From: Escherichia coli O157:H7
Lineage (GTDB): Bacteria > Pseudomonadota > Gammaproteobacteria > Enterobacterales > Enterobacteriaceae
Assembly: GCF_013167455.1 (NCBI RefSeq)
Contig: NZ_CP038328.1
Reading direction: 5' to 3' (one strand)
DNA length: 64,000 bases
Shown: piece by piece, positions 22,751-24,505 of the stretch
Numbering within the stretch: the stretch's first letter is position 1
Layout of the letters: every line of letters starts with the position of its first letter
Translations under genes and position numbers: made by a program
The notes under the pieces: model-generated
Databases searched by the model: none
What the model saw: the letters and a program-made list of their open reading frames with translations, nothing else
What the model was told of the DNA's origin: nothing

Positions 22751-24505
22751 TTATGCAGTGATAGTTTTTTTCTTCCAGCCAAATTTTTCTATTGCTATAC
22801 GTAAATTTTCCGGAGGATTTAGTGTATTTAAACGCTGTTGGTCAATAAATGGCGATACATTAACCTCCGATTTCAAGATAGTTTGCATCATTCTAAACCT
22901 AAGTTTTAATTCATTATTAAGTTTTTCTTCAATAACATCTTTTGGTTGATTTTTCATAATCTCTTCATTAGACTCTTTATTATTAAAATTATACCCTAAC
23001 TTATCAAAATAAATCTTTTCATCCTCATAGCTCTTAAGTAACCGAGGGAAGTACCAATTAATCATCTCAGTGTTTTTCATAAAAAAATCATTCATAAAAA
23101 TATCATTAACTAAAATACTGACAGGTACTTTATTAAATAGTGACTCAACATTATTAAATATTCTTTGTATTAAATATGTTTTTTCTCGATTGCTTAAGTT
23201 AAAATCATTGACATATACAACCAACTTTTTCCAAATCAACTCCTGTAATTCAGGGCTATTTTTATAGGGTTCTTTATCGAGATTGAAAAATAATGTCTCA
23301 GCTACTTTAGACTGATCGCGACGAAAATTAATATGATTTATTACGGAGCATGCATGCTCTATCTTTGCAGAATCATCAAAATATTGCATGCTTTTATTAA
23401 AACACCACTCCAGTATTTTTACATCATTATTATATGGCAATTCTAAAAAAGTCATCAACATCGAATGGATGACCGGTGTAAGATTAACCTTTGCATCATC
23501 TAAGGATTCAATAAGAATATGAGACAGGTTAATCATGATGTCATTAATTTCATTGTTACCTTCTTTGTCATTATCAATTCCGTGATCATTTAATTCGTAG
23601 AGCTTATCTATTTCTTCAAGTATACCATTTTCGCCCAGTAAGTATGAAATCGATTCACTACATACATGAGGCATTAATAGCAGATGTTCGTTCCTTATTG
23701 CTAATAATGCATTATTCAATGATTTTTCTAATAAATCCGTAATCGTAAAATCAACTGAACCTTTACAACTCACCTGCGAATTTTTTAAGTCCTGCGAGTT
23801 ATTTAACTCCTGCGAATTATTTAACTCCTGCGAATTATTTAACTCCTGCGAATTATTTAACTCCTGTATATTATTTAACTTCTGTATATTATTTAACTTC
23901 TGTAGATTATTTAACTTCTGTAGATTATTTAACTTCTGATGATTATTTAATAGACGAGCTATTTCCTTGTTAGCTTCGCGTTGGTAACACGCCAGAACCT
24001 TGTTAGTAATCAGGTGTAATGAACTCTCATCTTTTCTTTCAAAGGACTTTCTTTCATAACGGTTAGTCGAACCATCAGGTTGTGGAAATATAATGGCTGT
24101 ATGTCCTTGACGAGTCCCCATAGTAGTAATAGTGGAAAGTGAAATTTCTATAATCACCTTGGGTGAATCCGCTCGTTCCCCTTCAGGATTATTCATAACA
24201 AACTTCATTATCTCACTGCCATCATTATTTTTGATATAAGATGAGGACTCAATATGAGCCATCATATTTCTTCCCGCTTCGTTGGAGCGTTTGCTAAAAT
24301 CCACATAACCCAGGGTAAATATTTTTACCAAAAACTCCAAAAATGTCTTAGGATTAAGGATATTTCTTGTGTTATCCTGCCCCCCGGCATTACGGGCAAA
24401 ATTATTCATTCCAACACGCCAGGTATTTAAAACTTCACTTTTTTGTTTAAAATTGTCGGCTAATGTAATGTGTTGAGAATAATTCAAATCTGATATTTTG
24501 CTCAT
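22751..24505 (-). CDS. yjgL: Uncharacterised AT-rich protein YjgL containing hexapeptide tandem repeats
   Basis: 584-aa ORF, conspicuously AT-rich, with repeated LNNxQK/LNNSQE units in the middle. Confidence 0.75.
   Translation of the reverse strand: MSKISDLNYSQHITLADNFKQKSEVLNTWRVGMNNFARNAGGQDNTRNILNPKTFLEFLVKIFTLGYVDFSKRSNEAGRNMMAHIESSSYIKNNDGSEIMKFVMNNPEGERADSPKVIIEISLSTITTMGTRQGHTAIIFPQPDGSTNRYERKSFERKDESSLHLITNKVLACYQREANKEIARLLNNHQKLNNLQKLNNLQKLNNIQKLNNIQELNNSQELNNSQELNNSQELNNSQDLKNSQVSCKGSVDFTITDLLEKSLNNALLAIRNEHLLLMPHVCSESISYLLGENGILEEIDKLYELNDHGIDNDKEGNNEINDIMINLSHILIESLDDAKVNLTPVIHSMLMTFLELPYNNDVKILEWCFNKSMQYFDDSAKIEHACSVINHINFRRDQSKVAETLFFNLDKEPYKNSPELQELIWKKLVVYVNDFNLSNREKTYLIQRIFNNVESLFNKVPVSILVNDIFMNDFFMKNTEMINWYFPRLLKSYEDEKIYFDKLGYNFNNKESNEEIMKNQPKDVIEEKLNNELKLRFRMMQTILKSEVNVSPFIDQQRLNTLNPPENLRIAIEKFGWKKKTITA
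23771..23950. repeat. About ten in-frame 18-bp tandem repeats inside yjgL
   Basis: Consecutive units TCCTGCGAATTATTTAAC / TTCTGTATATTATTTAAC / TTCTGTAGATTATTTAAC read directly. Confidence 0.85.

Follow-up and report, generated by a model that had tools for sequence, protein, structure and literature searches.

The stretch of DNA analysed here (the window) comprises 64,000 nucleotides of Escherichia coli O157:H7 (NZ_CP038328.1, assembly GCF_013167455.1), and within its yjgL gene lies a tandem array of ten in-frame 18-bp units that encode hexapeptides of the form LNNxQx (23771..23950, minus strand). This array is the typing locus VNTR-34/CVN002, which has already been described, and is an ordinary known feature. 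It is very probably a coding minisatellite that slowly gains and loses whole units in frame, that marks lineages and whose length is close to neutral.

Tandem Repeats Finder (TRF) places the array at 23773-23950, with a period of 18 bp, 9.9 copies, 93% matches, no indels and a score of 202; only three tandem arrays in the window, this one among them, have a TRF score of at least 60. Read unit by unit in the frame of the 584-aa open reading frame (ORF), the order is LNNHQK, two LNNLQK, LNNIQK, LNNIQE, three LNNSQE, LNNSQD and LKNSQV. The two LNNLQK units are identical and stand in a row (TTAAATAATCTACAGAAG; 23897..23932, minus strand), as do the three LNNSQE units (TTAAATAATTCGCAGGAG; 23807..23860, minus strand). 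An earlier reading made from the letters and ORFs without database searches (the sequence-only reading) had described an in-frame array of about ten 18-bp units at 23771-23950, and its coordinates, unit length, hexapeptides and subfamilies are all correct.

The array encodes residues ~186-245 of the AT-rich yjgL coding sequence (22751..24505, minus strand), a gene that has been equated with icaR (PMC9241512). The matching locus carries the RefSeq annotation yjgL, and a 501-bp query with the array at its centre matches O157:H7 strain Rafaela_II at 100% identity, and there too the feature is annotated as yjgL. GC content is 0.27-0.38 within yjgL versus 0.46-0.55 in argI, tabA and bdcR on its two sides, so the AT-richness relative to neighbouring genes that had been pointed out earlier holds.

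The scheme for O157 in MLVA (the analysis of variable-number tandem repeats at multiple loci) contains one 18-bp locus, a lead that we then checked by mapping primers. VNTR-34 reportedly also goes by the names Vhec2 (Lindstedt, 2003), TR6 (Noller, 2003) and O157-34 (Keys, 2005), and is said to be part of the PulseNet O157 scheme, while CVN002 is reportedly a generic E. coli MLVA locus (Lindstedt, 2007). The VNTR-34 reverse primer (PMC3321953) maps to 23762..23793 on the plus strand, where it overlaps the last unit with 2 mismatches in 32 bases, at both primer ends. The forward primer of the same study maps to 23979..24004 on the minus strand with a single mismatch at its 5' base, over the 26 bases searched (the final primer base was omitted), and each of these primers has only one site within the window. 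The CVN002 primers (PMC8143711, reverse primer in Table 1 of that paper) match exactly, the reverse primer at 23631..23651 on the plus strand and the forward primer at 24043..24064 on the minus strand. VNTR-34 thus does not differ from the array, the window being its 10-unit allele, and CVN002 is the identical array amplified by primers placed further out. The resulting CVN002 amplicon, 23631-24064, is 434 bp. Under the published size formula, (size-272)/18, which assumes an 18-bp unit and a 272-bp offset (PMC8143711), it gives (434-272)/18 = 9 units, against ten units in frame, because the degenerate end unit sits inside the offset. Since the primer sites of VNTR-34 and CVN002 flank the array, it is an established typing marker in routine use since 2003-2007; VNTR-34 has served two decades of O157 outbreak subtyping, and CVN002 serves generic E. 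coli typing.

Fragment sizing by PCR found 4-12 repeats at VNTR-34 in hundreds of O157 isolates (PMC3321953). This polymorphism is borne out by the O157-type alleles of 5, 8, 9, 10, 11 and 12 units that we found. Across E. coli, direct reading gave alleles of 3 units in BL21(DE3), L725 and WG5::PA2, 5 in the O157-type strain OkiPb01686, 7 in AB66, 9 in FSIS11705876, 10 in the window and in O25:H16 F5505-C1, 11 in Sakai and ECP17-1298, 12 in O157:H16 Santai and 13 in K-12. A single unit is present in PI12 and in O10:H32 NMBU-W12E19, where the sequence beyond LLNNHQ belongs to a different, divergent lineage. The prediction that repeat count varies between strains is therefore upheld, as is the proposal that comparing yjgL repeat number over E. 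coli genomes would reveal it. When complete genomes were searched with 500-bp allele-specific queries at an identity of at least 99%, the O157-type 9-unit allele was found in 135 genomes (including EC4115 and TW14359), the window's 10-unit allele in 53, the 11-unit allele in 68 (including Sakai, Xuzhou21 and 86-24) and the 12-unit allele in 27. An 8-unit allele is present in 5 genomes at this threshold and in several more at 98.9%. Single genomes show multiple matching places, up to 8, which we read as offset self-alignments of the array, since queries with more units gave more of them. Three matching places in the complete-genome search tables sit on plasmids.

The locus is present in 4,732 of 5,426 complete E. 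coli genomes. The other 694 have no match at all, which agrees with the reported absence of yjgL from most B2 strains. To gauge the distribution of lengths, we took 60 evenly spaced hits of the array search, a rank-based and hence approximate sample in which units were counted from record spans. Roughly 21 of them carry 3 units, roughly 17 carry a single unit and 15 carry at least 7, including three K-12-type records that were matched in part; six matched one flank only, and one is interrupted by IS1. From these counts, long arrays make up the minority and are found chiefly in O157:H7 and K-12 lineages.

Related alleles differ by whole units within the two runs of identical neighbours. Relative to the window, the 11-unit O157 allele (Sakai type) has one extra copy of the identical LNNLQK unit, making three in a row, and the 9-unit O157 allele has one copy fewer of the identical LNNSQE unit, leaving two. 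The LNNSQE run is reduced to one unit in the 8-unit allele and extended to four in the 12-unit allele. Synthetic 8- and 12-unit queries, built solely by removing or adding units in these two runs, had 100% matches in real genomes. The 5-unit allele, LNNHQK-LNNLQK-LNNSQE-LNNSQD-LKNSQV, corresponds to a five-unit internal deletion compared with the window. Within the array, the farther apart two units lie, the more they differ, in a steady rise from 1.44 mismatches between neighbours to 6.0 between the two array ends, the mark of local duplication. Because the changes occur inside runs of identical units, they fit the slipped-strand or recombinational expansion that the sequence-only reading had proposed, and replication slippage or unequal recombination probably drives the gain and loss of units.

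These changes are slow. Vhec2 was the sole locus of nine to remain unchanged in parallel serial passage, corresponding to a rate of at most about 4.4e-5 per generation, and the authors note that this absence of change agrees with three earlier studies (PMC3777172). Given this stability in passage, length heterogeneity within populations, which long-read sequencing had been suggested to reveal, is not expected. Every allele that we read stays in frame across the array. Since the unit is six codons, the frame never shifts, and the array is not a phase-variation switch. Phase-variable contingency loci likewise contain intragenic tandem repeats that change copy number by slippage, but they switch genes on and off, whereas the 18-bp unit of yjgL produces neither a frame shift nor on/off switching. 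Moreover, the mutation rate of the yjgL array, unlike that of contingency loci, lies under the detection limit of passage experiments (PMC3777172). We therefore rejected a contingency locus, as the unit length is a multiple of three and the published passage experiments recorded zero change.

What is known of the gene itself comes largely from Shigella flexneri, in which yjgL is equated with icaR (gem3) (PMC9241512, PMC9769918). Transcription of icaR requires MxiE and IpgC as well as a MxiE box, and the type III apparatus secretes Shigella IcaR via the first 20 residues of the protein (PMC9241512, PMC9769918). Secretion by the type III secretion system (T3SS) has been demonstrated for the Shigella protein only (PMC9241512). 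The E. coli orthologues, among them that of O157:H7 ATCC 43888, which was shown to be activatable (PMC9241512), remain silent when MxiE and IpgC are not provided (PMC9241512, PMC9769918); MxiE/IpgC are carried on pINV (PMC9241512). The gene is missing from most B2 strains and is, in the authors' view, perhaps a fossil gene (PMC9241512, PMC9769918). The window gene lies in the same argI(argF)-yjgL-tabA locus as its Shigella orthologue and shares its low GC content and disordered N terminus; Shigella IcaR, however, is cut short at its 3' end by an insertion sequence (IS) element, whereas O157:H7 yjgL is full length. The old horizontal acquisition of yjgL that had been suggested from its composition matches the published view of icaR (PMC9241512). 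That work also describes "internal additions" in icaR orthologues that are conserved within phylogroups, and makes no link to the MLVA repeat (PMC9241512). The typing marker VNTR-34/CVN002 and the variable internal addition of IcaR/YjgL are one and the same, and the two literatures apparently had not been joined before.

The MxiE box is reported to be conserved and functional in icaR promoters, including that of O157:H7 ATCC 43888 (PMC9241512). By eye, we noticed a possible MxiE-box-like element upstream of yjgL, the T-rich AGAGCGTTTTTTGATAT with a CGTTTTTT core (24564..24580, minus strand). A MxiE-box consensus had no match upstream of yjgL at up to 3 mismatches, the AGAGCGTTTTTTGATAT element included. 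In the same region (24564-24640, minus strand), a hairpin, CGCCGTAAA...TTTACGGCG, occurs just past the tabA stop codon and is followed by AGAGCGTTTTTTGATAT.

Protein sequence searches suggest that the YjgL family does not extend beyond Escherichia and Shigella. HMMER, run exhaustively over 1.84 billion cluster representatives, returned one full-length cluster and otherwise fragments only, and a word-indexed protein search gave exclusively Escherichia among the 120 matches listed. Because the HMMER search yielded so few homologues, the alignments available to AlphaFold2 (AF2) were shallow and its models modest, with predicted local distance difference test (pLDDT) scores of 58.9 for the full-length protein (mean) and 70.0 for the other model. 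In the full-length model, residues 1-49 are disordered (pLDDT below 50), which is compatible with an N-terminal secretion signal. An alpha/beta domain (pLDDT near 75) spans residues ~50-180, and a helix that begins at residue 163 extends into the repeat. Residues 181-293 fall below 50, down to 23-24 over residues 221-250, and residues 295-575 form an all-helical domain. When the N-terminal domain was modelled alone, pLDDT rose to 76-93 over residues 50-190. Judged from these models, the repeat is a low-complexity helix/coil linker of variable length that joins two domains, with the low confidence of the model as a caveat.

RefSeq names for yjgL products vary by allele and record, and include "protein YjgL", "hypothetical protein", "DNA-binding protein" and, in the Sakai RefSeq entry, "SopA-central-domain-like hexapeptide repeat protein"; the last three are backed by no significant domain or fold match. 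YjgL resembles the HECT-like effectors SopA and NleL in its layout of a putative N-terminal secretion signal, then a repeat region, then a helical region, and it has a weak sequence resemblance to roughly the first half of the Pfam profile PF13981 (SopA-like central domain). This match scores 17.1-24.6 bits and is below the cutoff of 27. The SopA catalytic domain PF13979 was not matched in the Pfam search, no NCBIfam model matched, and a PDB profile search with YjgL returned neither SopA nor NleL. YjgL also shows neither a HECT-like fold nor a pentapeptide beta-helix, and its placement among the SopA/NleL-type effectors is not supported by these results. A left-handed beta-helix of transferase hexapeptides (PF00132, [LIV]-G-x4) was discarded, as no Hexapep match was obtained at E <=1 and the repeat has no beta structure in the model. 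Nor does the name "DNA-binding protein", assigned to many alleles by the Prokaryotic Genome Annotation Pipeline, correspond to any DNA-binding domain or fold that we could recognise.

Constraint on the gene is modest. Comparing the window allele with five further intact ones gives a ratio of nonsynonymous to synonymous divergence (dN/dS) of 0.27-0.47 for the N-terminal part and of 0.51-0.66 for the C-terminal part. Synonymous divergence (dS) reaches 0.41 in the C-terminal part, and the C-terminal half splits into deeply divergent allele lineages. This pattern of substitutions indicates weak purifying selection and old, mosaic allele lineages. Five of 12 alleles fetched from an evenly spaced hit list are pseudogenes, three through frameshifts, one through an internal stop and one through insertion of IS1 (IS1A). 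Among 35 distinct units, codons 1, 2 and 5 (TTA, AAT, CAG) are near-invariant, synonymous third positions included, with at most 1 of the 35 differing per site; codons 4 and 6 are variable at every position. Near-invariance at synonymous sites is better explained by units that share descent or have been homogenised than by peptide-level selection.

Taken together, units are gained or lost singly or several at once, mostly within runs of identical neighbours, and each change adds or removes LNNxQx hexapeptides while keeping the frame. The hexapeptides are predicted to lie in a linker that leads from the N-terminal alpha/beta domain, which follows a disordered predicted type III secretion signal, to the C-terminal helical domain. 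Change is slow enough for the locus to mark lineages and not to switch within populations. Length variation is probably close to neutral, because yjgL stays silent in E. coli when MxiE/IpgC are missing, is weakly constrained and is often inactivated. Several observations weigh against this reading. The linker description depends on an AF2 model of low confidence (mean pLDDT 58.9) whose alignment was shallow, and neutrality is something that we only infer. The O157:H7 alleles inspected are all annotated as intact (those with 5, 9, 10 and 11 units were fetched, and those with 8 and 12 were seen in search tables), and the L-N-N-x-Q-x pattern persists in the K-12 array as well, although this is older and has diverged more. 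Sequence also cannot separate replication slippage from unequal recombination.

Among other explanations, the chance that the variation in length is an assembly artefact, arising from collapsed or expanded repeats, is negligible. Short-read drafts can mis-assemble tandem repeats, but the whole array is 180 bp, which is below typical read length, only complete genomes were compared, and tens of independent genomes share alleles. The PCR sizing of 4-12 units in hundreds of isolates (PMC3321953) effectively refutes this explanation. An improbable but more substantial alternative is that repeat number is functionally tuned, either as the spacing or flexibility of a linker in an effector-like secreted protein or as an exposed epitope, and that selection keeps lineage-specific lengths. 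In keeping with this idea, the Shigella T3SS genuinely secretes YjgL/IcaR (PMC9241512), two predicted domains flank the array, the inspected O157:H7 alleles are all intact and every long allele retains the hexapeptide consensus. However, yjgL is not expressed in E. coli without the pINV-borne MxiE/IpgC (PMC9241512), in many lineages the gene is disrupted or contains just 1 or 3 units, and dN/dS is high (0.27-0.66). The near-invariant synonymous sites of codons 1, 2 and 5 suggest shared descent or homogenisation more than peptide-level selection, and the authors who studied IcaR consider that it may be a fossil gene. The specific proposal that the number of LNNxQx units (1-13) tunes the spacing of the N- and C-terminal domains is, in our estimate, very improbable; if it were true, MLVA alleles would differ in YjgL secretion, stability or activity in the host cell. 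The sequence-only reading had raised the possibility that repeat number modulates the function of YjgL. We consider such an effect unlikely: yjgL is silent and in many cases inactivated, its repeat changes slowly and most lineages have 1 or 3 units.

A role at the level of DNA, in which ten phased AT-rich cores (TTAAATAAT) would act as a putative H-NS nucleation and silencing site or as an intragenic promoter cluster, with copy number setting the strength of silencing, seems to us highly improbable. The gene is AT-rich and horizontally acquired, and the near-invariant TTAAAT...CAG cores would also fit constraint on DNA. Related MxiE-regulated chromosomal genes are reported to be H-NS dependent (PMC9769918). 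Yet AT-richness is equal over the whole gene, so that the array is not needed for H-NS binding, and alleles of 1-3 units are the commonest. A scan for promoter-like sites found 11 in yjgL versus 9.2 expected and zero in the array. Since such sites are thus neither in surplus over the gene nor present in the array, we rejected an intragenic promoter cluster.

The two other tandem arrays of the window lie at 15473-15768, with a 96-bp unit in 3.1 copies (93% match, TRF score 504), and at 60167-60221, with a 17-bp unit in 3.2 copies (97% match, TRF score 103). The consensus of the 96-bp unit includes the palindromic motifs GCCTGATAAGACGCG...CGTCGCA and CGGATGCGGCG...CGCCTTATCCG. It resembles intergenic elements of the repetitive extragenic palindromic and bacterial interspersed mosaic kinds (REP/BIME), and lies upstream of a 951-aa ORF (16264-19119). 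A second AT-rich stretch (19174-20397, minus strand; GC 0.33-0.40) corresponds to a 407-aa ORF between this 951-aa ORF, which is the size of valS, and a 167-aa ORF, and is another compositionally atypical gene near yjgL.

The coding minisatellite reading therefore concerns a marker that is already in wide use, and what is added here is modest: an explicit link between a typing locus and what is predicted to be the variable linker of an orphan T3SS-substrate protein, with no new biology implied. The link bears on how the marker behaves across E. coli. It is null in B2 strains because these lack yjgL, and its short arrays (1 or 3 units) across most other lineages are explained by its residence in the silent, decaying icaR/yjgL gene.
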